64,000 bases of DNA from an uncultured Verrucomicrobiae bacterium (lineage in GTDB: Bacteria > Verrucomicrobiota > Verrucomicrobiia > Chthoniobacterales > UBA10450): positions 13,684-77,683 of the forward strand of contig CAVTUV010000011.1 of the NCBI GenBank assembly GCA_963737995.1. The letters run 5' to 3'. How positions within the stretch are numbered: position 1 is the stretch's first letter; each line of letters starts with the position of its first letter. The notes below the pieces were generated by a model. It had not been told where the DNA came from, ran no database searches, and saw only the letters and a program-made list of their open reading frames with translations. Below are positions 10,504-42,967 of this stretch, piece after piece. The position numbers and the translations under genes were made by a program.

Positions 10504-11243
10504 GGCTGATTGTTGTGTGCCGTGCCCGCGAGCACTCGCCGGCGCCAGCGCAACGCGGTCAACAAACAACCCAGGCCATAGCGCACGCTGGCGGCAAAGC
10601 CAATCGAAGATGCCTCCGGAAAATACTTCGTCGGGCAGCTGATCTCTCCGACGGGATAACCCAGCGCGATAACCTGGACGAGAATCTGGTTATCGAAAAT
10701 GAAGTCATCTGAGTTCTCCTCCAAGGGAAGGCGCTCGAGCAGGGAGCGGGAGAAGGCCCGGTAACCGGTATGATACTCAGAGAGCTTGGCCCCGAGGAGC
10801 AGGTTTTCGATCAGAGTAAGGAACCGATTGGAGACGTACTTCCACCAGGGCATTCCGCCGCGCAACGCGCCCCCACCGAGAATGCGTGACCCGAGAACGC
10901 AGGGATAGAGTCCACTTGCCACGAGGGACGCCATCGCCGGGATCAAGGCCGGGGTGTATTGATAATCAGGATGGATCATGATCACGATATCGGCGCCGGC
11001 GGCGAGGGCGAGGCGGTAGCAGGTCTTCTGGTTGCCGCCATAGCCGCGATTTTGCGGATGGACTTCCACTTGCACGTGCGGTAGCGAGCGCGCCATGGCC
11101 GCGGTCTCATCTTTGCTGGCGTCGTCGACCAGAATGACCCGGTCGACAATTCCGTGCGCCATCACTTCGTCGTAGGTCTGACGCAGAGTCTGGGCGGCAT
11201 TGTAAGCCGGCATCACCACCACGAGTTTCTGGTCTTTTATCAT
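10500..11243 (-). CDS. Glycosyltransferase family 2 (polyprenyl-phosphate sugar synthase-like, DPM1/GtrB type)
   Basis: Intact 247-aa ORF: VVVMPAYNAAQTL, ILVDDASKDET, NRGYGGNQKT, IVIMIHPDYQY, LGSRILGGG. Confidence 0.8.
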   Translation of the reverse strand: MIKDQKLVVVMPAYNAAQTLRQTYDEVMAHGIVDRVILVDDASKDETAAMARSLPHVQVEVHPQNRGYGGNQKTCYRLALAAGADIVIMIHPDYQYTPALIPAMASLVASGLYPCVLGSRILGGGALRGGMPWWKYVSNRFLTLIENLLLGAKLSEYHTGYRAFSRSLLERLPLEENSDDFIFDNQILVQVIALGYPVGEISCPTKYFPEASSIGFAASVRYGLGCLLTALRWRRRVLAGTAHNNQP

Positions 11244-12244
11244 CGTTTCGAAAGAGCGCTTCGCTGGGCCGGTAGTAGTTGCCCAAGCGCGCGGCGGTGG
11301 GGCGAGGGAACCGGCAGGTCAGCCAGCGCATGGAGCGGGAACCACTTTTGATGTTCGTTAGGCATACTTGCGTCGGACCGGGCGAACACGGCCAGCGTGA
11401 TGCGATGGCGGGTGAACGGGAATTCAAACTGCAGGAGCGGGCGACGCCGGGGCCTGGCCGCGAGGCGCGGGAGGATCCACATCCCGCGCCAGCGAGCGCG
11501 GGATTGCTCGAGGAGAATCCGGTTCCGCTGCAAGGTAAAGGCGTGTTGCTCGGTCAGACGAACGATCGACGCTCGCTTTCTTTTTCGTGGCAGCAATTCT
11601 GGTTGTTCGGCGCGGCAGAGTTTGCGGACCGGACAAGCTCCGCAACGTGGTTGGCGCGGCCGACAAATCATCGCGCCGAGGTCCATCAAAGCGGCGTTAT
11701 GGTAACGCCCGCCCGTGGCCGGAAGGAGAGCCTCGGCTGTGGTCCACAGATGCGCCTGGCCGGCGGCGGTATCGATCGGGGTTTTCCAATTCGTTAGGCG
11801 AGCGAGCAGGCGCGCGATGTTTGCGTCAACCACCGGCTCGGGCCGGTCGAAGGCAAAGCTGGCCAGCGCGCCGGCCGTGTAGCGCCCGATGCCGGGCAGT
11901 TGCGCGAGCTGCTCGGGAGCGTCCGGGAGTTTGCCGTCAAGATTCCGCGCCACAAAACGCGCGACCGCCCGGAGATTCCGGGCCCGGGCGTAATAGCCCA
12001 GGCCCTGCCAGGCGTGCAGCACATCGGGTTCATCGGCCCGAGCGAGCGCATTGAAATCGGGAAAACGCGCCAGCCAGCGCTCATAATACGGAAGGACGGT
12101 CGCGACCGTCGTTTGCTGGAGCATGAACTCCGAGACAAGAATCGCATACGGATCGCGACTCCGCCGCCACGGCAGGTCGCGCCCCTGAACCGCAAACCAG
12201 CGCTGCAAAGCAGATCGAAAAGCGCGGCGGTTGATCATTTCCAA
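11240..12244 (-). CDS. mutY: A/G-specific adenine DNA glycosylase
   Basis: Intact 334-aa ORF. HhH-GPD LPGIGRYTAGALASFAF, Fe-S cluster CRPRQPRCGACPVRKLC (C-x6-C-x2-C-x5-C), NUDIX-like C-terminal domain. Its stop overlaps the GT2 start as ATGA. Confidence 0.9.
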   Translation of the reverse strand: MEMINRRAFRSALQRWFAVQGRDLPWRRSRDPYAILVSEFMLQQTTVATVLPYYERWLARFPDFNALARADEPDVLHAWQGLGYYARARNLRAVARFVARNLDGKLPDAPEQLAQLPGIGRYTAGALASFAFDRPEPVVDANIARLLARLTNWKTPIDTAAGQAHLWTTAEALLPATGGRYHNAALMDLGAMICRPRQPRCGACPVRKLCRAEQPELLPRKRKRASIVRLTEQHAFTLQRNRILLEQSRARWRGMWILPRLAARPRRRPLLQFEFPFTRHRITLAVFARSDASMPNEHQKWFPLHALADLPVPSPHRRALGQLLPAQRSALSKR

Positions 12245-28328: not shown

Positions 28329-29394
28329 TTACAGAATTACGCTGCTGCGCCGCCAGCCGGTGCGTTCGTTAGGCGAAAAGGCGGCTCGCTCGTAATGCCG
28401 ATTGAGCAGCCGCGCTGATTCATTTCCGTCCTCCGGCGCGCGCGGCGGTTCCGGCGCGGGCGGAATCTCGGGCAGCTCTTGGTTTTCCAACTTCTCGAAA
28501 CGCTCCCGCACCTTCGCCGGAATCTTAGCCCGCTGCTCCGCGGTCTCGATCGGGCCGTTGAAGAGCACCTTTCCTTGTGCGTCCTTCGCAGTCAGCATTT
28601 TTTTGCCATCCACCCGCTCCAGTTTGAGCTCGCCCTGGTCATCCGAGAAAGTGACGGTCGCTTTGCCGAGATCGATCCTGGTTGACTTTGTCGCGTCGTC
28701 GTCGGTCGAGACGATGCGCAGGCTGCGCGCGGCCCGGCGCGCCTCGTCACCCGCGCGCATCGCCTGAGCTTTGGCCCGCGCGACCGCTTCGCGCACGGCC
28801 GTCATGTCAGGCATCTGGAAATCAAAATTCATTTTATCCAGGTCATCGAAGTTCCACTCTTTCTCGAACCCGAACGGCCCGCGGCCCATCGAGGTCTCGT
28901 GCTTCTTCAATTTCACCGTCACTTTCATCTCCTTGCCCTTGCGCAGGAGGGTGAGGTTGACCGTGGCGCCATCGGGGAAACTGCGCACCAGCTTCCCGAG
29001 CTGGCCGGGCTCGACGATGATCTGGTCGTTTAGCATCCGGATGATGTCGCTCTGTTGCAGGCCGGCGGCGGCCGCGGCGCTATCCGGCACAACATGGTCC
29101 ACCACCACGCCGAAGCCGCGCGGCAATCCCATTTGCTCCGACAGGACGCGCGGCACATCGGAGGTCTCGACGCCGAGAAAGGTGACCGGTTCCTTCGGGC
29201 CCATGTCGTGTTCGTGAAAATGCCCGCGAGGCGGGGGAACGGGCGGGACGGCGGCGACGGGCGGCGCAGGTGACGCCGGCCGCGAGTAATAATCCGGCGC
29301 CGGTTGCGAGGCAGTTGGCGTGGGCGACTGGGCAAAGGCAACCAGCGGCAGCAACCGCGGCCAGGGCCGTCGTTAGGATCAGCTGTTTTTTCAT
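28329..29394 (-). CDS. Periplasmic PDZ-domain protein; one frame break near 29350
   Basis: Signal peptide MKKQLILTTALAAVAAAG. PDZ region FLGVETSDVPRVLSEQMGLPRGFGVVVDHVVPDSAAAAAGLQQSDIIRMLNDQII, then a charged C-terminal half. Confidence 0.7.
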
Positions 29395-30509: not shown

Positions 30510-31322
30510 TTGCAGCCTCAGGCGAGGCTGGCAGAGGTGCCGGCCTCGGATGGCAATGCGCGCTCTCTCGCGGCCGCTGAAGCAGCTTTCGCGCACGAAT
30601 CAGAAACGAGCGGAACCCGCACTGCCTTTATCCATGCCCTCTCCAGCGACGGAATTATCTTTCGGCCCGATCCGGAGAATGGTCAGAAGTCGTGGGAGAC
30701 GAAGAAGGGCTCGGGCGGTCTCCTGCAATGGCAACCGGTCCTGGCGGTCGTGGCCGCGAGCGGCGATTTCGGTTACACGACCGGCCCGTGGACTTTCCGG
30801 AAATCCGAGGAGGAAAAAGCCGAGGCCTTCGGGCATTTCGTTTCCATTTGGCGGCGGGAGGCCGGAAGATGGAAATTGCTTTTCGATCTTGGCACGAACC
30901 ATCCCGCGCCGGCCACCGCAACTCCGGCGCTGCAATTGGTCGAAAATCATGCGCCTAACGAATCGGCGGCGGCGGCGCGCGCAACCCTTTTCCAGCAAGA
31001 CCACGCCTACGCCGCTGCTCCGGCGGCGAAGATCTCGAACGTCGCGGCAGACGCGATTCGGCTCTATCGGCCGGAAAAGTTTCCGGTGATTGGAAAAGAA
31101 GCGGCGCAAGCCGCGCTCCAGTCCGGATTGAAGACGATCACCTTTGATGAACCGAAGGGAGAGGTGGCGGCGAGCGGTGATCTCGGTTTCGCCTGGGGAA
31201 AATATTCCGCCAAGGAAAAAATCGGAGCGGCCGGGGAAGAGATCGGGTACTACCTGCGGATCTGGCGCAAGAATGAGGCGGGCCAATGGCAGCTCGCCCT
31301 CGATTTGCTCCACCCTCGTTAG
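30510..31322 (+). CDS. Tandem NTF2-like (SnoaL/DUF4440-type) domain protein
   Basis: Intact ORF with two repeats of about 125 aa, each ending G(D)xG(Y/F)xxGxW...(I/S)WR(R/K)xxxGxW(K/Q)L..DL. The start codon is uncertain (TTG 30510). The TAG stop lies inside a CGTTAGGC motif. Confidence 0.5.
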   Translation: MQPQARLAEVPASDGNARSLAAAEAAFAHESETSGTRTAFIHALSSDGIIFRPDPENGQKSWETKKGSGGLLQWQPVLAVVAASGDFGYTTGPWTFRKSEEEKAEAFGHFVSIWRREAGRWKLLFDLGTNHPAPATATPALQLVENHAPNESAAAARATLFQQDHAYAAAPAAKISNVAADAIRLYRPEKFPVIGKEAAQAALQSGLKTITFDEPKGEVAASGDLGFAWGKYSAKEKIGAAGEEIGYYLRIWRKNEAGQWQLALDLLHPR

Positions 31323-31335
31323 GCAAGATCGCGCC

Positions 31336-32082
31336 GTGGAATCGAGTCTCCCTCTGCCGTCGGTCTCGATCATTGTCCCGACGCTGAACGAAGTGGAGAA
31401 CGTCGAGCCGCTGACCCGCCGGATCATGGCGAGCGGGATGGAGCCGCTCGAGATCATCTTCGTCGACGACGGCTCGAGCGATGGAACCCCAGATCGAATC
31501 CGCGCCCTGGCGGCGGAATTTCCCGTCCGGCTGGTGCTGCGCGAAAATCCCACCCTTGGTCTCTCTGGCGCGGTCGTGGCCGGCGCGGGTGCGGCGACGG
31601 GGGATTTGCTCGTCGTGATGGATGCCGACCTCAGCCATCCGCCGGGCCGCATTCCTGATCTGGTGAGGCCGCTGCGTGCCGGCACCTGCGACATGGTGAT
31701 TGGGAGCCGCTACGTGCGCGGCGGCACCACGCCGGGCTGGCCGCTTTGGCGCAGGATCCTTTCGCGCGCCGCATCCGCCTTCGCCTACCCGCTCACCCGC
31801 GTGCACGATTCGATGTGCGGCTTTTTCGCCATCCCGCGGTCGCTCCTGCTCGAGCGCGCGCCGGCCGCGACCGGTTTCAAGATTGCTTTCGAGATCATCG
31901 TGCACAGCCATCACCAAATAAGGGTGCAGGAAATCCCCATCGCTTTTCGCGATCGAGCCCGGGGCGCATCGAAGATGACCTTTCGGGTCGCCTCGGTTTT
32001 CTTTTTCCGCTGGCTCGCCGCTATTATCAGGCGACGACCGGGGCCCGCCGCAGCCGGCGCAGCTCGAGCGCGAGTCCGATAA
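31336..32082 (+). CDS. GT2 polyprenol-phosphate mannosyl/glycosyl-transferase (Ppm1/DPM1-like)
   Basis: GTG start. VSIIVPTLNEVENV, IFVDDGSSDGT, LVVMDADLSHPP, MVIGSRYVRGG, GFKIAFEI. No frame break. Confidence 0.8.
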   Translation: MESSLPLPSVSIIVPTLNEVENVEPLTRRIMASGMEPLEIIFVDDGSSDGTPDRIRALAAEFPVRLVLRENPTLGLSGAVVAGAGAATGDLLVVMDADLSHPPGRIPDLVRPLRAGTCDMVIGSRYVRGGTTPGWPLWRRILSRAASAFAYPLTRVHDSMCGFFAIPRSLLLERAPAATGFKIAFEIIVHSHHQIRVQEIPIAFRDRARGASKMTFRVASVFFFRWLAAIIRRRPGPAAAGAARARVR

Positions 32083-33294
32083 AGAGCAGCAGAGTGGCGA
32101 AAAGGGTATTGCCGCAACGCTGCGACCAACGCTGGAAGGGAAGGGTGAGGAAGAGGAGCAGGACGGCGGCCAGCGCCCACCAGCGCAGCGATGACTCCGG
32201 CCGGACGAGCCAGATGCGGGTGCAGATGACGAAGGGAAAGAGAAGGAAAGCGAAGAGATAGCCAAAGGCGAGGGGCGAGGCGATGAGCATGAGGAGAAGA
32301 AGCATCGAACACTCGATCGCATCCGTCTCCCTCGTGCGCTGCGCGGTCGGCGGCATGGCGACGAGATAAATCAGCCCGAGCAGGAGCGCGATGCCGGCGA
32401 TGATGGCGTTGACCGCTTTAAAAGGAAGATCGGCAAAGTTGATGTAAACCGGTTTGTCGGGCGGCCGGGTCGCATCGACGTCCACCTTGCGCAGAAACCG
32501 GTTCACGACTCCGGCGAGCGACTGGTTTTTCCAGGCGACACTGCGCTCCGGGCGCTGTGCGATTCCTCTCTCGTCTGGTACTGGAAGAGCATGCCGTTGC
32601 TCCAATGCTTCAGATCGTCCTGCGCGCCGGACCAGCCGCGAAAGCTGGCGGGCAGGATGAGGAGCAGGAGCAGGAGCGAGAGCAGAAGGGAAATGGTCGC
32701 GATCCAATAACGCCGCCAAATCAGGTAGGCGATGGCGGTGATGGGGAATGCCTTGATCACCGCGGCGAGCGCAAAGAGACCGCCCGCAGTCCAGGAACGT
32801 TTGGCGCGGAGAGCGAGAAAGCCAGCGAGGAGCAACCCGAGCAGGAGCAGGGTCGGTTGCCCGAGAAGGTAACAACTCCAGACGTAAGCGAGGATAATGA
32901 GATTGGGGACGAGGTAGAGCAGCGCGTGAGGGCGTTCGCCCGCCGGAGTCGTTAGGCAAATCGAGCAGGCGATGCAACCCCACCAGGCGAAGGAGTTGAG
33001 AAGAGCAAGGATCGCAATCAGTCCGGCCTGGCCAAACCAGCTGACCGGCGCGAGCATCTCCGCCGCGGGCGGCGGATACATGAAAGGGAAACGCTCTTTC
33101 GGTCCCGGGTAAATCGCGCCGCCGTGCAGAACCGTCTGTCCAATGCTGAACCAAAGTTTGTAATCTTTCGCTCCTCGCCCGGCGGCCAGGTTGATCAGTG
33201 GCACGATCGAGAAGACGAGCGCGGTCAGCAGGAAGAGAAAAAGGAGAAGGCGCCGGCCGTCGCGGCGATTCAGTCGCTCAAGAAATTTTTGCAT
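32027..33294 (-). CDS. Multi-pass membrane glycosyltransferase, GT87/DUF2029-like; one frame break near 32520
   Basis: ORFs 32503..33294 and 32027..33154 join. About 10 TM helices, FPFMYPPPAAEMLAP loop, KAFPITAIAYLIWRR. The 3' end overlaps the convergent GT2 gene by 56 nt. Confidence 0.55.
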
Positions 33295-33297
33295 GAT

Positions 33298-34389
33298 CTA
33301 TTTCGCCGGTCCCTGCGGCCGAAGAATCAAATTGCCTAACCAATAGGGATCCGCCACTCCCTCCCGGTAGGCGGCGAGCGCTTCCGGCGAAGAATTGATG
33401 TGCAGATTGCTGTAGGTCTGGTCTTCATTTTGCCAGCGCTCATGCCAGTAAACGGCCGCTTTCAGACGGGGCAGTTTCGTTCGCATCACCTCGAAAGCTT
33501 CGCGAATCCACTTCGCCTTGTCGCCCGAATCGGCAAACTCGCCCACCCCCCATTCCGTGATCATAATCGGCTTCTTCGGGTCGAGCGCGGCCATTTCCTG
33601 GTAAGGCCATTCGATCAGAGGGGAGAAATCCGACCACGGTTCGTCATCAAATTGCTTGCCGTAAACGCTCATCCCAAGCCAGTCGACATAAGCGGAACCG
33701 GGATAATAGGCCGGCGCAGAATTCCATTTATCGACCGGAAACGAATAATTGTTCGTCTGGAATACCCACTGGATGTGGTGCGCGCCGCGGGCCCGGACGC
33801 GCTCGACGACGTAACGGAAAGCGCGTTTGAAAAGCTCCGGGCCTTCCCACTCGTTAGGCCGACCTGGGATCGGCTTTGACCCGCCGTAGTAGGTGCCGGA
33901 CCAGGGAAACCAATCGCCATTCATCTCGTCACCGAAGGAAACGATGAGCGGTTTCCCGAAGGCGCGCGCTGAGTCGGCCCAATCATCGATATAACGGTTC
34001 CAGGTGCCGGCGAGAATGGCGTTGAGACTGAATCGATCGGGCCCCTTGTGTTGTTCGTAGGGGCGGTCCCAGGGCGACCAGAAAACGAGCGGGAGCGAGC
34101 CGTGTCGCCAGATCATCTGCAAATTCGCGCTGGGAAAACTTTGTTCTCCCCAATAGCTGGAGGAAGCGATGATGCCCTGATGTTTGCCGACCATCTGCTC
34201 GAAATCCTCGATTGTCTCGAGCGCGACGGCATCCTCGGCGTCGCCGAAATCGATGAAGGCTCCGGTGTAAGCGCCCTTTTCCGGCAGCACCACCTCGACC
34301 GGCGCGTTCGGGTGCACCTTTGTAGCGACCGCCGCGTGCCTCTCGCAGCCTAACGAAAAGCAAAAGAGCGCGAGCACAACAATTGTCAT
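33298..34389 (-). CDS. GH26-like glycoside hydrolase lipoprotein
   Basis: Probable start MTIVVLALFCFSLGCE (lipobox LGC). Catalytic-region motifs LIVSFGDEMNGDWFPWSG and IMITEWGV. The upstream part of ORF 33298..34509 is repeat-derived. Confidence 0.65.
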   Translation of the reverse strand: MTIVVLALFCFSLGCERHAAVATKVHPNAPVEVVLPEKGAYTGAFIDFGDAEDAVALETIEDFEQMVGKHQGIIASSSYWGEQSFPSANLQMIWRHGSLPLVFWSPWDRPYEQHKGPDRFSLNAILAGTWNRYIDDWADSARAFGKPLIVSFGDEMNGDWFPWSGTYYGGSKPIPGRPNEWEGPELFKRAFRYVVERVRARGAHHIQWVFQTNNYSFPVDKWNSAPAYYPGSAYVDWLGMSVYGKQFDDEPWSDFSPLIEWPYQEMAALDPKKPIMITEWGVGEFADSGDKAKWIREAFEVMRTKLPRLKAAVYWHERWQNEDQTYSNLHINSSPEALAAYREGVADPYWLGNLILRPQGPAK

Positions 34390-34508
34390 CCCGAGGTCGC
34401 CGCGGCGACCGAGGGACCTCACAGTTGCAATGGACGGCTTCATTTGTCGGGAGACGCCAGTTTCCAGATGCGAGGTCCCTCTCCGTCCTGCGGCGGATCG
34501 GGATGACA
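34384..34508. repeat. Intergenic inverted-repeat element, GTCATCCCGAG family, copy 5
   Basis: TGTCATCCCGAGGTCGCCGCGGCGACCGAGGGACCTC ... GAGGTCCCTCTCCGTCCTGCGGCGGATCGGGATGACA, with an inner GTTGCAAT. Confidence 0.75.
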
Positions 34509-34562
34509 AACATGGGAGAGCGGCGGCATCATCGACGGCGTCTTATCCTGCAGGTTCCAACT

Positions 34563-37500
34563 TCAGACCCGCACCGGCACGGAAGCAGTCCGCTCCAGTT
34601 TTCCCCAACCAACCCAGGCGCCCTTGATCGCGCGCAGGATTGCTTTCCAGATCACGTAACTGAGGAGCGGCCGGTAAATCAGGCGCATCGGGATGATCCG
34701 CCAGGCTTTTAGAATCGACTCGCGTTCGATCACACAGGCGAGGGTGGCGAGGATCACATCCATCGCGACAAAGATGATGACGAAAGGGAGCACCGCGCGC
34801 CAGGCGCCGAAGGGAAGCGAAGCGACAAGAAAAAAGTCGACCAGCGGGGTGAGCGCGACGAGCAGGATTTGGAAAAACCAGACGCTCGGCAGACTGAACC
34901 AGCCGAGCGCGTGGTAGCGCCAGTTGAAGACTTTCTCCCGATGCTTCCAGAGGCATTGCAACGTCCCGTAGGCCCAGCGGAAACGTTGCCGCGCGAGCGT
35001 ACGCAAGGTTTCAGGCGCTTCCGTCCAGGCGATCGCGTCGGGCGTGTAAACGATGCGTCCTTTGCTCTTATGCAAGGCGAGGGTGAGATCGGTGTCTTCC
35101 GCCAGAGTATCGAGGCTGAGCCCGCCGACCCGCTCAATGGCGGAGCGGCGCAGCGCGCTGATCGCGCCGGGCACGACCGTGATGCAATCCCAGCGATCGT
35201 AAGCGCGCCGGTCGAGGTTGAAGCCGCACGTGTATTCGAGCGCCTGGCAACGCGCGATGAAGCTGCGCAGGTTCCCGACCTTGGCATGACCGGAAACCGC
35301 CACCACCGTCTCGTTGTGCAGCGGCCTGACGAGCAGGCGGAGGGTGTCGCTTTGCAGATGGGTATCGGCATCGAGGAAAACAACCAGCTCATGCCGGACT
35401 AATGACAAACCGCGTTGCAAGGCGACCGCTTTGCCGCGGTTCGGTTGCCTGACGAGCCGGACGCGCGCATCGGTCCGCGCGATTTTCTCGACTTCGACCG
35501 CCGTGCCATCACGCGAACCATCGTCTACCACCAGCACCTCGATTACGCCCAGATAGTCGTTCGTCAGGACGGCGCGCAGGGTCGCAGCCATCACCTTCTC
35601 CTCGTTAAAGGCGGCAATCAGAACACTGACCGGCGGCGCGAAATCCGCCGGCGGCGGGGCAGCGCGGCGGAAGCGGGCGGCCAGAAAAATCACGACCAGA
35701 GTGCGAATGACGATCAACGCGGTCGCGACGATCATGAACGCCCAGAGAAATTCCTCGGTCGCGTGAAAGACGCGGAAACCTGCGCTGCTCACAAACCGTG
35801 GAAGGCTTTGCCCCTTGCCGACCGGCGGCATGACCGCATCACGCGAGCTGCCGATGAGCGCGCTCAACGGCACGATCGTGTCACCGCGCGTCTGCAACCA
35901 ATCGATGATCTGCGGAAGCGCGGCGACCGTCTGGGAGCGGTCGCCGCCGGCATCGTGCAGGAGGATGATGCTGCCGTCGTGGCGCTGTTGTTTGATGCGC
36001 TGCAGAATGACATCTGCACCGGGTCGCGCCCAATCCTGCGGATCAATGTTTTCGAGCACGACGAGATAATTCATTTCGTCCGCAATTCGCAAGGAGGCGA
36101 GATCGGCTAAAGACGAAGGGCTGGTGTCGGCCGCATACGGCGGGCGAAAAAGGGTGGTCGAGCGGCCAGTGATAGTCTCGAGCAGAAGTTGGGTGGCGTT
36201 CAACTCCAGCCGGATGTGCTCCGGCCAGCAGACCGCGAGGTTGGGATGATAGTAAGTGTGGTTGCCCATCTCGTGCCCCTCCGCGACGATCCGCCTGACG
36301 AGATCGGGATATTTTTCCGCGTTCACTCCGACGAAAAAAAAGGCGGCTTTGACACCGCTCGCTTTCAGGATGTCGAGGACCTGCGGCGTCCATTTCGGAT
36401 CGGGTCCGTCATCAAAGGTGAGGGCGACCTGATGTTCGCCGCCGGCGCCCTGATGATAGAGGGTCGGGAACTCCGGAAAGCTGAGATAAGTCGCGCTGAG
36501 ATAACCGGCGCGATCGACTTCGATCTTGCGCGCGCCATTGGTGCGCGCTTCGTCGACACTGACGATCTCGCCTTCGCCCACATCGGTGATGGTTTCATCT
36601 CCTTGCAAAGTCTCGAGCTCGGATTTCACCGTGCTGTTCATCGGCATTTGGCGCGGAAGATTGATTGCGCTCCAGATCGCGGAGTCTTCCGAACCCAGGC
36701 GGTAGATCGCGAATCCGCCCGCCTGCTGATCGCGCAAGGTGTGGAGCTGGTTCAGGAAACTCACGACATCGAGGAACCAAACGGAGTGCTCCTTGTCCGC
36801 GTCTTCGTAATAAAAATCGGAACTGTGCTCCGGCGCCGCGACCGTGCCCGATTCCACCCCCGCGTTGCTCGCGCGGCTCATGGCCTCGGGAAAACTGATC
36901 GTCTCCGCGCGATGCTCGCCATTCGTCCAATCGTAGCCATAGCTGCCGAGCGCGATGATCCATTGTTTCGGGTCCGCGTCTTTCAAGAGCGCGTGCAGCC
37001 ACGATTCAAACCACTGCCGCGAAGCGAGCGGCCCCGGAGGATCGGTGTCGGAGGTTTCGTCAAAGAGAAGCGCGACAAAGCGGTCGACGGTCTCGGAAAG
37101 ACTGTCGAAGTCGATGTAATCCAGGTCCTGCCCGGGTTGCACGCAGAGCCAGAGTTGCCGGCCGGCCGCGTGGAGCGCGTCCGCCAGCTTGTTGAGCAAT
37201 TTCGTGATGTCGTCCTGATAGGCGGGATCGACCTGTTCCCAGTCGACCACCACGCCGGCCGCCTTCGCCTCCTGCAAATGGGCGAGCAGTTTTTGAATGA
37301 AACGATCCTGCCGATCGGCCGGGCCGTGCGCCAGATTCTCGACCGCTTCGGGTTGCCAGGTATCGCCGACGAGATTGGTCAGGAGCGGCATCAGCGCGAT
37401 GCCTTTGGCGGCGGCGAGTTTTGGGAGACGGCTATCGGCGTCGATCTGGAGATTGCCCAGGCCATCGACGAGCGCGAACCACTCCGGGCAGACATGGGTC

Positions 37501-37919
37501 AGGAGCGCGGCATGTTGCTCGAGCGATTTGTAGCTGTAGGGATCGCCATTGGTATAAAAGCCCATCCGCACTTCGCCACCGGCCGATTTCCTCGCCGGGG
37601 GGGGCGGCGTGGAGGGCGAAGGTGGTTTTTTTGCCGCGGCGCGCGCGGCGATGAATTTCTCCCAAAGCGGAACGTTAGGCGCGAGTTGACCGGCCGGATT
37701 CTTTTTCTGGACCGATTTCAACTGGCCCTTCAACTGCCGCAAGCTGAATGGCAGCTGCAGTTGCGGGGTGACAAAAAGCGTCTGGACAAAAAAGACGGCG
37801 GCGATGAAAGCCGCGATGCCGGTGAAAAGAAGAGTCAGGCGCAGACGTGGCCACCGCTTTCCGGCAGGGTCGGAAAAAATGAATGCAGTGCGCTCTTCCG
37901 GGAAATCGGCGTCCATCAA
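34563..37919 (-). CDS. Three-domain exopolysaccharide synthase: GH18-like domain + CE4 (NodB) polysaccharide deacetylase + processive GT2 synthase with flanking TM helices
   Basis: Intact 1118-aa ORF. N-terminal TM helix. Residues ~117-415 are GH18-like (GVVVDWEQ, GSYGYDW). Residues ~495-690 are CE4 (VALTFDDGPD, HEMGNHTYYH, LLHD). Residues ~763-985 are GT2 (VSVLIAAFNEE, VVDDGSRDGT, FLDADT, QRFRWAYG). Four or five C-terminal TM helices follow. Confidence 0.85.
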   Translation of the reverse strand: MMDADFPEERTAFIFSDPAGKRWPRLRLTLLFTGIAAFIAAVFFVQTLFVTPQLQLPFSLRQLKGQLKSVQKKNPAGQLAPNVPLWEKFIAARAAAKKPPSPSTPPPPARKSAGGEVRMGFYTNGDPYSYKSLEQHAALLTHVCPEWFALVDGLGNLQIDADSRLPKLAAAKGIALMPLLTNLVGDTWQPEAVENLAHGPADRQDRFIQKLLAHLQEAKAAGVVVDWEQVDPAYQDDITKLLNKLADALHAAGRQLWLCVQPGQDLDYIDFDSLSETVDRFVALLFDETSDTDPPGPLASRQWFESWLHALLKDADPKQWIIALGSYGYDWTNGEHRAETISFPEAMSRASNAGVESGTVAAPEHSSDFYYEDADKEHSVWFLDVVSFLNQLHTLRDQQAGGFAIYRLGSEDSAIWSAINLPRQMPMNSTVKSELETLQGDETITDVGEGEIVSVDEARTNGARKIEVDRAGYLSATYLSFPEFPTLYHQGAGGEHQVALTFDDGPDPKWTPQVLDILKASGVKAAFFFVGVNAEKYPDLVRRIVAEGHEMGNHTYYHPNLAVCWPEHIRLELNATQLLLETITGRSTTLFRPPYAADTSPSSLADLASLRIADEMNYLVVLENIDPQDWARPGADVILQRIKQQRHDGSIILLHDAGGDRSQTVAALPQIIDWLQTRGDTIVPLSALIGSSRDAVMPPVGKGQSLPRFVSSAGFRVFHATEEFLWAFMIVATALIVIRTLVVIFLAARFRRAAPPPADFAPPVSVLIAAFNEEKVMAATLRAVLTNDYLGVIEVLVVDDGSRDGTAVEVEKIARTDARVRLVRQPNRGKAVALQRGLSLVRHELVVFLDADTHLQSDTLRLLVRPLHNETVVAVSGHAKVGNLRSFIARCQALEYTCGFNLDRRAYDRWDCITVVPGAISALRRSAIERVGGLSLDTLAEDTDLTLALHKSKGRIVYTPDAIAWTEAPETLRTLARQRFRWAYGTLQCLWKHREKVFNWRYHALGWFSLPSVWFFQILLVALTPLVDFFLVASLPFGAWRAVLPFVIIFVAMDVILATLACVIERESILKAWRIIPMRLIYRPLLSYVIWKAILRAIKGAWVGWGKLERTASVPVRV

Positions 37920-38479: not shown

Positions 38480-39679
38480 TTATTGCGGATTATAAATCTC
38501 GAGCAAAGCGACGCCCGTGGTGTCACCGGCGCCTCGGACAATCGCAGTGTAGCTCCCGCTGGGCAGGGTGGCGAGGATGACCGACTCTTTCGGATCGGCC
38601 GGCGCAAAGCCGCTCGCGGTGATCTGCGCTTCCTCCGTGTCCTGCCAGTTATCGTTCGTCGCGATCAGAGCGCCGCTGCCATCGTGCAGTTCGAGCAACG
38701 GATCCGGGAGCGGCTCGGTCACGCCGGCGGCCGCAAGCGACGGGCCAATCGCCCGCACGACCACGGCATTGTTAGGCAGGGCGCTCCCTCCGAGAATGAA
38801 ACCTCCGATCAGGACGTTATCGCCGGTTTGAACAAAGCCGCGCGCACTGACGTTGCGAAATTTCTCCGAGATCGGCTCGAAGGCGATGAAGGTCGGCGTG
38901 TTCAAGCCCGAAGCGAAGGTACTCATGATTCCATCAGGAGTGAACTTTAGGATCACGCTGCTGGTGTTGTCCCCCGCGAAAAGATTGCCCGAGCCATCAA
39001 AGGCGAGGCCGGCCGGTCCGCTCAGCCCAGAGGCAAAAGTGCTCTGAGTTCCATCGGGGGCGAACTTGTAGATGGCGCCGCCAGCGAGATCGGAGACAAA
39101 AAGATTGCCGGCCGCGTCAAAAGCCAGACCTGCCGGGTTGACCAGGCCCGCGGCAAAACTGCTCGTCACGCCTGTCGTGGTGACTTTGAAAACGGCGCCG
39201 CCGCCAAGATCGGCGACGAAGAGGTTGCCGGTGCGGTCAAACGCCAGACCCGTCGGATTGGTCAGGCCGGAAACGAAGATGCTCTTGCTTCCGTCGGAAG
39301 TGAATTTGTAAACCGTGCCGCTGTTAAATTCCCCGACGAAGAGATTGCCCGCCGCGTCAAAGGCCAAACCTGTCGGGCCGGCCATGACTTCGGAAGCGAA
39401 AGTGATCTGCGCGCCGGCGGGAGTGAATTCCAAGATTGAGCCCGTGCCCGTATCCGAGACGAAAAGATTGCCGGCGCGATCAAACACCATCCCGACCGGC
39501 ATGTTCAAGCCGGTGGCGAAAGTGGTTTGCGTTCCGTTGGCCGCGAATCGGAGAATCGTCCCACTGCCAAAATCCGCTTCCAACAAATCACCTTCGGCCG
39601 CCCCGACATGAGTCGCAAGGAAGCAGGCTGCGCAAGTCGTTAGGCAAAGGAACGAATGAAGGAGAATGTGCTTTTTCAT
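38480..39679 (-). CDS. Secreted NHL-repeat beta-propeller protein with a C-terminal beta-sandwich domain
   Basis: Intact ORF with a signal peptide after MKKH. Six units of about 42 aa of the type G(L)xxPxGLAFDxxGNLFVxDxxxGxIxKFxxxG. The C-terminus is NVSARGFVQTGDNVLIGGFILGG...LELHDGSGALIATNDNWQD... Confidence 0.75.
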   Translation of the reverse strand: MKKHILLHSFLCLTTCAACFLATHVGAAEGDLLEADFGSGTILRFAANGTQTTFATGLNMPVGMVFDRAGNLFVSDTGTGSILEFTPAGAQITFASEVMAGPTGLAFDAAGNLFVGEFNSGTVYKFTSDGSKSIFVSGLTNPTGLAFDRTGNLFVADLGGGAVFKVTTTGVTSSFAAGLVNPAGLAFDAAGNLFVSDLAGGAIYKFAPDGTQSTFASGLSGPAGLAFDGSGNLFAGDNTSSVILKFTPDGIMSTFASGLNTPTFIAFEPISEKFRNVSARGFVQTGDNVLIGGFILGGSALPNNAVVVRAIGPSLAAAGVTEPLPDPLLELHDGSGALIATNDNWQDTEEAQITASGFAPADPKESVILATLPSGSYTAIVRGAGDTTGVALLEIYNPQ

Positions 39680-39837
39680 AGGCGTGTGAAACATCGCGAG
39701 TGCCGCGATCAATCATTGTTAGTCGCGATGGACGAACGGTTTAGATTTCGCAAATGAGCAAGTCGCATGCCTCGCGCGCGCGACGCCGGCGGCGACCGGC
39801 AAACTGGCGTCCGGCGCGGGAGGGCTTAGTCTGGAAG

Positions 39838-41208
39838 ATGAGGTTTTACTTTCACGTTCTCTCCCTCTCGCTCGCGCTGACTGCGATCGCCTCCGCGGCG
39901 TCGTCCCGCGAAGCGAAGCGGAATCCGCAAATCGCGGGCGTCGTGAAAGAAATCTCGGCGCAGAAAATCGAGGCGAGCATTCGCAAGCTGGTCAGCTTCG
40001 GCACCCGCCACACGCTTTCCGACACGAAAAGCGACACCCACGGGATCGGCGCGGCGCGGCGCTGGATGCAGGCGGAGTTCGAGCGCTACGCGAAAGATTC
40101 AGGCGGCCGTCTGCAGGTGACGATGGACGAGTTCACCCAGCCGCCCGGCGAAACGAAATCCGCAACCGGTGCCAGGTCGTCAACGTCGTCGCCACGTTGC
40201 CGGGCGAGCAGCCGGAAGCGCGCGACCGGATCTATGTCGTGAGCGGCCATTACGATTCGCGCGTCACCGATGCGATGAACGCGACCGCCGACGCGCCGGG
40301 CGCGGATGACGACGCTTCCGGCGTCGCCGCGGTCCTCGAGATGGCGCGCGTGATGTCGCAGCAGAAATGGGACGCGACCCTCGTCTTCATGGCGGTCGCG
40401 GGCGAAGAGCAGGGGCTCTTCGGTTCCACCCACTGGGCGAAAATGGCGAAGGAAAAAAACTGGAACGTCGCCGGCATGATCACGAACGACATCATCGGCA
40501 GTTCCCACGCGGACGACGGCCACGTCGACAACACGCATGTGCGCCTCTTCGCCGAAGGCGTGCCGCCGATGAAGGAAATGTCGGAAGCGTGGCGCAGGCA
40601 GATCGCGACCGGCGGCGAAAACGACAGTCCGGCGCGCGAGCTGGCGCGCTTCATCAAGACGATGGGCGAGCGTTACGTCAGCGGCATGACGGTGAATATC
40701 ATCTATCGCAAGGATCGTTATCTGCGCGGCGGCGATCATTCGCCTTTCCTCGAAGCCGGTTATCCCGGCCGTGCGCATGACCGAGCCTAACGAGGACTTC
40801 CGCCACCAGCATCAGGACGTGCGCAAGGAAAACGGCGTGCAGTTTGGCGACCTGCCGGAGTTCGACGATTTCCACTACATCGCGCAGGTCGCGCGGATCA
40901 ACGCGGCGTCGTTAGGCGCGCTCGCCCTCGCCCCGGCCGCGCCCGCCGGGGTCGAGATGGAGACGAAGGAATTGACCAACGACACGACCCTGCACTGGCA
41001 GGCGAATCGCGAACCGGACCTGGCCGGCTACGAAGTGCTCTGGCGCGAAACGACTTCGCCCCTCTGGCAGCACGCCGTTTCCGCTGGTAACGTAACGCGT
41101 TTCACTGTCCCGAAAGTTTCCAAAGACAACTTCCTCTTCGGCGTCGCGGCGGTCGATCAGGAGGGAAATCGAAGCCCGGCAGTTTATCCCGCGCCTGCCG
41201 CCAAGTGA
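39838..41208 (+). CDS. M28-family metallopeptidase with a C-terminal fibronectin-III-like domain; 2 frame breaks
   Basis: Signal peptide MRFYFHVLSLSLALTAIASA. YVVSGHYDSR, APGADDDASGVAAVLEMARV, FMAVAGEEQGLFGS, RGGDHSPF. C-terminus ...DLAGYEVLWRETTSP...GVAAVDQEGNRSP. Breaks near 40160 and 40775. Confidence 0.75.

Positions 41209-41955: not shown

Positions 41956-42967
<1,012 letters not shown>

Follow-up and report, generated by a model that had tools for sequence, protein, structure and literature searches.

We report a single gene that encodes, in one chain, a glycoside hydrolase family 18 (GH18) barrel, a carbohydrate esterase family 4 (CE4) deacetylase and a processive glycosyltransferase family 2 (GT2) synthase. 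It lies in a 64,000-nucleotide stretch of contig CAVTUV010000011.1 from an uncultured Verrucomicrobiae bacterium, and this whole stretch is referred to below as the window. Judged from its sequence, the protein is probably an all-in-one machine of the synthase-dependent MatAB/Pga/Ica type, which would produce a partly de-N-acetylated polymer of N-acetylglucosamine (GlcNAc). The fusion gene is one unbroken open reading frame (ORF) of 1118 amino acids (aa) with a TTG start in the mechanical ORF list; the identical public-database protein (P0001) starts one codon downstream, at ATG 37916, and is 1117 aa long. Domains were called with Pfam profiles judged against curated cut-offs, and all three catalytic-type domains scored above them: Glyco_hydro_18 (PF00704) at aa 119-409 with 44.0 bits against a cut-off of 29.6, covering profile positions 3-315 of 317; Polysacc_deac_1 at aa 493-598 with 121.5 bits; and Glyco_tranf_2_3 at aa 762-985 with 116.2 bits, with matches to related GT2 profiles and Chitin_synth_2 as well. 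An initial annotation, made from the letters of this DNA, had described the same 1118-aa GH18-CE4-GT2 polypeptide; its nucleotide ranges agree with the Pfam ranges, and all of its motifs (VVVDWE, TFDDG, HxxxH, DDG, DAD and QRFRW) are present in the translation. The failure of the GH18 or CE4 assignment in domain searches, which it had named as grounds for refutation, did not arise.

HMMER was run exhaustively over 1.84 billion representatives of 50%-identity clusters, and the 150 best matches, with E-values down to 1e-158, were taken as family representatives. Nearly all of these representatives are about 1100 aa long and align end to end with 29-59% identity, and the GH18-CE4-GT2 order was detected in 148 of them with domain hidden Markov models (HMMs) built from our own alignment. 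A species-level genome scan gave 261 relatives, the best 80 of which all belonged to metagenome-assembled genomes (MAGs) of Chthoniobacterales, Spartobacteria or 'Ca. Udaeobacter'. The breadth outside Verrucomicrobia was examined by tblastn on plasmids and megaplasmids and by cluster look-ups. The three-domain protein was detected by tblastn, with at least 88% query cover, in Bacillus mycoides, B. nitratireducens, Sphingomonas, Sphingobium, Novosphingobium, Deinococcus, Prevotella nigrescens, Sulfitobacter and Limimaricola, and a Bryobacteraceae (Acidobacteriota) member was found by cluster look-up. The architecture, the frequency of which the initial annotation had left to a survey, is common across bacterial phyla, not rare, and is annotated generically: plasmid copies are named just 'glycosyltransferase', and the JGI name is 'cellulose synthase/PNAG synthase-like glycosyltransferase/peptidoglycan…' or 'peptidoglycan-N-acetylglucosamine deacetylase'. 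The other ground for refutation, a routinely annotated and well-studied architecture, holds in its first half, since the protein is abundant, generically named and present in several phyla, but not in its second, as no description of a GH18-CE4-GT2 protein was found in full-text literature searches. On the Bacillus mycoides plasmid p322 (5229-12613) the fusion gene lies between two IS6-family transposase genes, which suggests that this single-gene module can move horizontally.

The GH18 and CE4 modules lie between two transmembrane (TM) helices, TM1 and TM2 (Table 1). The stretch GKRWPRLR directly precedes TM1, with four K/R just ahead of the helix, and ARFRR directly follows TM2. Based on the hydropathy of the two helices and this positive-inside charge pattern, GH18 and CE4 are predicted to be periplasmic and GT2 to be cytoplasmic. 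At the C-terminus, hydropathy and the AlphaFold2 (AF2) model gave three long helices (1010-1032, 1039-1063 and 1070-1111) plus interface helices, in place of the four or five membrane helices proposed initially, and these three helices presumably form the translocation channel. The full-length AF2 model has a mean pLDDT of 74 and a pTM of 0.47, at which the relative placement of domains is unreliable, and no reading was put on it. Between GH18 and CE4 there is a small beta-strand module, with no family match in Pfam or NCBIfam scans, in which the glycines G448, G450 and G462 are conserved in a diverse alignment of 27 sequences; it may serve as a hinge or bind carbohydrate.

The GT2 module contains the motifs VVDDGS, LDADT, AEDTD and QRFRW. 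Among NCBIfam models the best score was obtained with PgaC_IcaA (TIGR03937, 189.9 bits), followed by NodC (100) and CelA (67), and BLASTP against E. coli PgaC showed 33% identity over 287 aa (E 5e-41). By these scores the module is a relative of PgaC/IcaA, and we do not call it an orthologue. In Foldseek comparisons, GT2 and the C-terminal helices together superposed on the hyaluronan synthases of Chlorella virus and Xenopus and on BcsA over about 420-450 columns (the alignment to CvHAS has about 423 columns, with a TM-score of 0.64 normalised to the target). As modelled, this part of the protein has the look that a polymerising and translocating synthase should have.

The CE4 module contains all five CE4 motifs, TFDDG (501-505), HTYYH (554-558), RPPY, DPQDW and LLHD, with a complete Asp-His-His metal triad, and the motifs overall are retained in 146-149 of the 150 family representatives. 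The best solved relatives in a PDB sequence search were 7Y51, 7FBW, Bc1960 and SpPgdA (E 1e-42 to 1e-33). Overall, these relatives are GlcNAc deacetylases of chitin or peptidoglycan, Bc1960 and SpPgdA among them; the module is about 40% identical to GlcNAc deacetylases. The best NCBIfam models were PdaB, PgdA and NodB, with a PdaA-type match in addition, and neither a PgaB nor an IcaB model was among the matches of this segment. Orthology with PgaB was considered and rejected, BLASTP against E. coli PgaB giving E 0.027 over 107 aa, and no region like the GH153 C-terminal part of PgaB was found in the fusion protein. By its sequence affinities the module is of the NodB/PgdA/PdaB type and is not PgaB-like. 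Of the original proposal, the joining of a PgaC/IcaA-like synthase to a polymer deacetylase and a GH18 fold is retained, while the PgaB/IcaB-like nature of the deacetylase is withdrawn.

The closest characterised system, which fits better than PgaB/IcaB, is MatA/MatB of Streptomyces (SCO2963/SCO2962), involved in the formation of poly-N-acetylglucosamine (PNAG) and in mycelial aggregation. MatB consists of an extracellular CE4 and an intracellular GT2 domain joined by one TM helix, and MatA, described as having 'no known protein domains', is required together with MatB for PNAG and pellet formation in S. lividans (PMC5972031, PMC4391728). Residues 480-1118 of the window protein are collinear with a 'bifunctional polysaccharide deacetylase/glycosyltransferase family 2' protein of S. 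viridifaciens (39.7% identity over 97%, with the same Pfam order), and this CE4-TM-GT2 protein is of the MatB type. Conservation of the N-terminal juxtamembrane motif of the window protein (Table 1) was unexpected. Its residues F15 and R22 do not vary among 27 aligned sequences of 30-58% identity, and 114 of the 139 full-length representatives carry the pattern [VI]-F-x-D-P-[ST]-G-[RK]-R-W ahead of a TM helix, most of the others having variants. A CE4-GT2 protein of Kocuria rosea opens with the same motif (VFYDPSGKRWYR, followed by a TM helix). In Streptomyces the motif is located not in MatB but in the MatA-like protein encoded just upstream, as PPPPVFVDASGRRQRR and, in a second case, as PVFVDSSGRRQR, each followed by a TM helix. 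The window protein would then be composed of a MatA element, GH18 and MatB, and by analogy the MatA element may be an accessory piece of the synthase with a role comparable to that of PgaD/IcaD. Two other candidate relationships were rejected. MatA is not a homologue of the GH18 barrel, as MatA-like proteins carry no Pfam domain and only the N-terminal motif and the TM helix align; and the Kocuria 'chitinase' gene beside the CE4-GT2 gene is not a split GH18, as BLASTP detected no similarity and its GH18 score is sub-threshold (22.9 bits).

The GH18 fold was confirmed by an AF2 model of aa 105-492 (pLDDT 84.9, pTM 0.85), for which the top Foldseek matches were 5JH8 (E 8e-23, TM-score 0.85) and SleL (E 2e-22), the non-catalytic chitinase-like proteins SI-CLP, YKL-39 and Ym1 also being among the matches. 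A PDB sequence search with the module gave 5JH8, a 'probable chitinase' (E 5e-16), YdhD and SleL/YaaH (Bacillus spore-cortex enzymes), and SI-CLP, and no NCBIfam model matched the segment. The acid motif reads A-G-V-V-V-D-W-E, with VVVDWE at aa 223-228 and D226-W-E228 encoded at 37236-37244. The first two Asp of the DxxDxDxE consensus are absent, and the D-x-E pair (D226 and E228) is present. Since the acid motif of SleL, YdhD and 5JH8, G-x-x-x-D-F-E, likewise has no upstream Asp, this absence is a trait of the subgroup and not a sign of decay. The initial annotation was right that the catalytic Glu is kept, but it overstated the loss of the preceding DxD, as only the two upstream Asp are missing.

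While domain identities, intact catalytic motifs, topology, conservation and gene linkage are results of the analysis, we infer the substrate, the linkage, the GH18 activity and the route across the outer membrane. Under the proposed mechanism, the cytoplasmic GT2 would polymerise UDP-GlcNAc processively and thread the chain through the channel of C-terminal helices, as hyaluronan and cellulose synthases do, so that the chain would emerge in the periplasm beside the two domains tethered between TM1 and TM2. On the periplasmic side of the inner membrane, CE4 would remove some of the N-acetyl groups, giving a cationic, adhesive polymer. GH18, which keeps its D-x-E pair in this clade, would bind the GlcNAc chain and would probably cut it for release or length control, comparable to the hydrolase domains of PgaB and PelA. 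The N-terminal motif and TM1 would act as a fused MatA equivalent, probably supporting the synthase as PgaD/IcaD do. In Chthoniobacterales, a presumably co-transcribed periplasmic GH26 hydrolase would add a second trimming activity.

Table 1. Position of the features of the fusion gene and its GH26 partner, and retention of catalytic motifs among family representatives
Feature	Residues (aa)	Nucleotides	Strand	Remarks	Retention
Fusion gene		34563..37919	(-)	Order: MatA-like motif, TM1, GH18, small beta module, CE4, TM2, GT2, three C-terminal helices; ORF list, Pfam, P0001, AF2	
MatA-like motif, AFIFSDPAGKRWPRLR	12-26	37842..37886	(-)	Cytoplasmic, juxtamembrane; alignment, motif scan	
TM1	~28-50	37770..37838	(-)	N-in/C-out; Kyte-Doolittle peak 2.21; model helix 23-48	
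GH18 (beta/alpha)8 module	~116-420	36660..37574	(-)	Pfam PF00704, PDB sequence matches, AF2, Foldseek	D-x-E 102/145
Small beta-strand module	~440-490	36450..36602	(-)	Between GH18 and CE4; five strands, pLDDT ~80-88	
CE4/NodB module	493-693	35841..36443	(-)	Predicted periplasmic; five CE4 motifs intact	Asp-Asp 148/150; His...His 148/150
TM2	~726-748	35676..35744	(-)	Out-to-in; Kyte-Doolittle peak 2.71; long model helix 701-747	
Processive GT2 (GT-A)	762-985	34965..35636	(-)	Predicted cytoplasmic; DDG, DAD, ED, QRFRW	DxD 149/150; ED 147/147; QRxRW 146/147
C-terminal membrane helices, three	~1005-1111	34587..34907	(-)	Hydropathy, AF2; aligns with TM region of HAS/BcsA	
GH26-family hydrolase		33298..34509	(-)	N-terminal signal/anchor; directly downstream; mechanical ORF 403 aa	

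Several observations weigh against this proposal. The PgaC_IcaA score of the GT2 module is well under the equivalog cut-off of that model (422.3 bits). The match to MatA is short: hhalign picks exactly this segment with a probability of 10.8% and an E-value of 0.0028. No outer-membrane porin, TPR scaffold or cyclic di-GMP (c-di-GMP) receptor was found by Pfam among the window neighbours of the fusion gene. To our knowledge, GH18 enzymes act on β-1,4 GlcNAc linkages and not on the β-1,6 linkage of PNAG, so that either the product is not PNAG or GH18 does not cut it. Within the barrel, the window's clade has Phe (Phe286) where the 'xxYD' motif of GH18 has Tyr, and Tyr (Tyr406) where a Trp is conserved, and in the wider family D and/or E of the catalytic pair is replaced by many different residues in 43 of 145 representatives. 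Because about 30% of the family lineages have lost D or E, hydrolysis cannot be the universal role of the GH18 module.

The barrel could instead be a non-catalytic, lectin-like domain for binding and guiding, or a scaffold that holds the chain for CE4, with trimming left to other enzymes such as GH26; we consider this possible but doubtful. The loss of D-x-E stands against the near-invariance of the CE4 and GT2 residues (Table 1), and GH18 is the least conserved of the catalytic-fold domains, with a mean identity to the window protein of 31% compared with 48% for CE4 and GT2. The two active-site substitutions in the clade, the presence of SI-CLP, YKL-39 and Ym1 among the structural matches and the active-looking GH26 hydrolase encoded by the conserved neighbour agree with this alternative as well. 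On the other hand, D226 and E228 are retained in all 118 cluster representatives of the window's own clade (72-100% identity), as are the clade-specific Phe286 and Tyr406, and 70% of representatives in the wider family still have the pair. SleL and the class V chitinases, the nearest structural relatives, are catalytically active and carry the same G-x-x-x-D-[FW]-E motif, and 5JH8 also has Tyr at the 'Trp' position. Given the loss of D-x-E in 43 lineages, the barrel must have a role that outlasts the loss of catalysis, for example in binding, guiding or scaffolding; given its retention in 118 of 118 close representatives, a catalytic role within the window's clade is likely on sequence grounds.

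For the linkage of the product, the β-1,6 type of PNAG is given about even weight, based on the homology to PgaC and MatB, and the β-1,4 type, suggested by the GH18 fold and by a NodB/PgdA-type CE4 known from β-1,4 substrates, is a weaker candidate, the rest being left to other products. The CE4 of MatB has the same bias toward β-1,4 substrates, yet MatAB is reported to make PNAG (PMC5972031). With a β-1,4 linkage, the protein could be a single-polypeptide chitin/chitosan synthase, in which GT2 would make a chitin-like chain, CE4 would convert it to chitosan during emergence, GH18, a fold truly specific for β-1,4 GlcNAc, would release or size it, and the MatA-like motif would be an essential built-in activator. 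This is rather unlikely; if true, chitosan-like polymers in soil organic matter and biofilms would have an overlooked origin in the very abundant soil Verrucomicrobia related to 'Ca. Udaeobacter' and in many other bacteria.

A different way to reconcile a β-1,4-specific GH18 with a β-1,6 product is that GH18 and CE4 act on peptidoglycan, locally cutting and de-N-acetylating the sacculus for passage or anchoring of the polymer. In agreement with this, the nearest GH18 relatives are the spore-cortex enzymes SleL/YaaH and YdhD, the nearest CE4 relatives include peptidoglycan GlcNAc deacetylases (Bc1960, SpPgdA and the PdaB/PdaA models), and the 2015 MatAB paper raised a possible link to peptidoglycan synthesis (PMC4391728). 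The CE4 of MatB, however, has the same affinities to peptidoglycan and chitin deacetylases while MatAB is tied to PNAG (PMC5972031), the tethering by two TM helices places GH18 and CE4 at the face of the inner membrane beside the emerging chain, and LysM domains of the SleL type, which bind peptidoglycan, were not detected in the fusion protein by Pfam. A peptidoglycan target is improbable, and action on the emerging GlcNAc polymer remains the preferred reading.

The gene directly downstream encodes the GH26-family hydrolase (48.6 bits against a Pfam cut-off of 20.2), the true start of which is probably M23 (34443) or M41 (34389). It aligns with the Clostridium thermocellum lichenase CtLic26A (2BV9) over nearly the full catalytic domain, with E 1e-29 and about 30% identity; both catalytic Glu are aligned, the acid/base motif reading EMNGDWFPW versus EANGDWYPW, and all relatives with the site covered (61 of 61 and 57 of 57) retain the Glu motifs. 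Of 70 related Chthoniobacterales loci with enough downstream sequence, 62 have the GH26 gene no more than 6 kb beyond the fusion gene and 52 have it directly adjacent, and in a 58%-identity relative with another genomic context the GH26 gene starts 5 nucleotides downstream. The other neighbours of the fusion gene vary among loci, and for this reason the conserved unit is taken to be the two genes for the fusion protein and GH26. In the loci examined outside Verrucomicrobia, the GH26 gene was absent from the side of the fusion gene, which stands alone in Bacillus, Sphingomonas, Prevotella, Bryobacteraceae and a metagenome lineage, as fits a self-sufficient module. Exopolysaccharide (EPS) clusters with GH26 genes are known, one case being WpsE of Actinoplanes.

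A hydrolase that acts on the polymer being made is commonly encoded in synthase operons, as with BcsZ, PgaB, PelA and AlgL, and the similarity of the conserved partner to the β-1,3-1,4-glucanase CtLic26A could point to a β-glucan or mannan-type chain, with CE4 as an O-acetyl esterase and GH26 as the cognate endoglycanase. The CE4 family does include acetylxylan esterases, and one top structural match, 7FBW, is titled as one. A product of this kind is nevertheless highly improbable. The GH18 mechanism depends on a substrate that bears an N-acetyl group, de-N-acetylation of GlcNAc is the activity of most CE4 relatives, the GT2 scores are 190 bits for PgaC/IcaA and 100 for NodC as compared with 67 for cellulose synthase models, the GH26 partner is missing from the loci examined outside Verrucomicrobia, and the homologous MatB system yields PNAG (PMC5972031). 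A GlcNAc polymer is retained as the proposed product.

Apart from GH26, the window neighbours of the fusion gene encode a GT87-family protein, a DPM1-like GT2, a DUF4440 protein, an ECF sigma factor, a PDZ protein, an NHL-repeat protein, an M28 peptidase and LpxD; the Pga/Ica accessory genes pgaA, pgaD, icaD and icaC were not among them. Upstream, at 38480-39712 (-), lies the gene for a secreted protein of 410 aa, an NHL-repeat/SGL beta-propeller that is extended at its C-terminus, and the upstream neighbour differs in three listed relatives (L001, L002/L003 and L090). Between the GH26 and ECF sigma genes, a pair of a donor-making and a GT-C-type donor-using enzyme is inserted, that is, the DPM1-like GT2 (polyprenyl-phosphate sugar synthase type, 31144-32082 (+)) and, convergent with it, the polyprenyl-phosphate-sugar-dependent GT87 at 32027-33294 (-). 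Of the 83 fetched loci, just three (L005, L011 and L012; 84-91% identical) have a GT87 gene after GH26, and L005 alone showed the convergent gene; the pair might decorate the polymer or another envelope glycan. In two distant loci of the family the surroundings differ again: at L085 (P0260, 8574-15590) there are a separate 423-aa GH18 gene upstream and genes for TPR and GGDEF proteins downstream, and at L091 (P0140) a 1541-aa variant with an N-terminal extension of about 430 aa is encoded beside flagellar genes and a PilZ protein. These contexts hint at c-di-GMP control in some lineages.

The window had been described as error-prone and the fusion gene as intact within it, in agreement with the present comparison, in which the GT87 and M28 peptidase genes are split by 1-nucleotide indels relative to close relatives. 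The GT87 gene is split into two overlapping frames, whereas the relative L005 (86% identity; 10789-12054) has one continuous ORF of 421 aa for it, and the split is probably a 1-nucleotide assembly error rather than a pseudogene. At 39754-41208 (+), the gene for the M28 peptidase, whose C-terminal region is fn3-like, falls into three separate ORFs; it differs from L005 by 1 nucleotide in a short C-run near 40770, and three further 1-nucleotide indels occur near 42590-42660. Long-read homopolymer errors typically give such a pattern. Across the whole window there are 43 copies of the 9-mer GCCTAACGA (reverse complement TCGTTAGGC) against 0.31 expected, for example at 28366, 29550, 30057, 31316, 33851, 34348, 40785 and 42627. 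Since copies keep their positions in related genomes, also where the flanks have diverged, the 9-mer is a native, selected word, perhaps uptake-signal-like or architecture-imparting. Its strand polarity switches near 34-40 kb, from 21 minus and 6 plus copies before to 5 minus and 11 plus copies after. The fusion gene is almost free of the 9-mer, as first noted, but in place of the single 5' copy there are no exact copies and one 8/9 copy at 37672-37680; depletion as a signal was rejected, because the copy-free gap of 5.3 kb is ordinary among other gaps of 4-6.3 kb.

The fusion gene is near-universal in bacteria of the Chthoniobacterales/'Ca. Udaeobacter' type, a soil-derived group seen here as MAGs only, and its product could matter for soil aggregation and carbon. 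With the synthase, the deacetylase, the glycosidase fold and the MatA-like element in one chain, the protein offers a minimal, portable model for the coupling of polymerisation, export and modification. That the GH18 pair was lost repeatedly while the CE4 and GT2 sites stayed invariant provides a natural experiment on the purpose of the glycosidase fold, and the MatA match offers a testable role for a Streptomyces protein without a recognised domain.

Synthase-dependent EPS systems, such as those for cellulose, PNAG, Pel and alginate, are normally multi-protein. For the single modules, the window GH18 shares the motifs G-x-x-x-D-[FW]-E, YGYDW and LG-x-ED with SleL/YaaH, YdhD and 5JH8, but those proteins are soluble or spore-associated, often with LysM, and are spore-cortex peptidoglycan enzymes or uncharacterised, whereas the window GH18 is built into the chain of a membrane synthase and has Phe where 'xxYD' has Tyr. 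The window GH26 differs from CtLic26A by its signal/anchor and its EPS-type locus. For the whole system, PgaABCD/IcaADBC resembles the window protein in combining a processive GT2, a metal-dependent CE4 and a glycoside-hydrolase fold for handling the same polymer, following the logic of PgaB (CE4 and GH153). In contrast to Pga, the window protein has GH18 instead of GH153 and carries this hydrolase fold before CE4 and anchored to the inner membrane; its CE4 is not PgaB-like, no PgaA porin or PgaD is encoded nearby, and its GT2 is under the PgaC_IcaA cut-off. Divergent pgaB clades with deacetylase-GT fusions, in operons without pgaA and pgaD, were described by Bundalovic-Torma et al. 2020 (PMC7112194) and share the fusion logic of the window protein, but they are described without a hydrolase domain, and GH18 and Verrucomicrobia are not mentioned (PMC7112194). 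In MatAB, the CE4-TM-GT2 part is collinear with the window protein, the motif P-V-F-x-D-x-S-G-R-R plus TM helix of MatA-like proteins resembles aa 12-50, and homologues of PgaA, PgaD or IcaD are absent nearby in both systems. MatA and MatB are, however, two proteins, neither with GH18 by Pfam, whereas the window system is one chain in which a 300-aa GH18 barrel and the small beta module lie between the MatA-like TM helix and CE4, in a diderm Verrucomicrobium host and with a GH26 partner gene.

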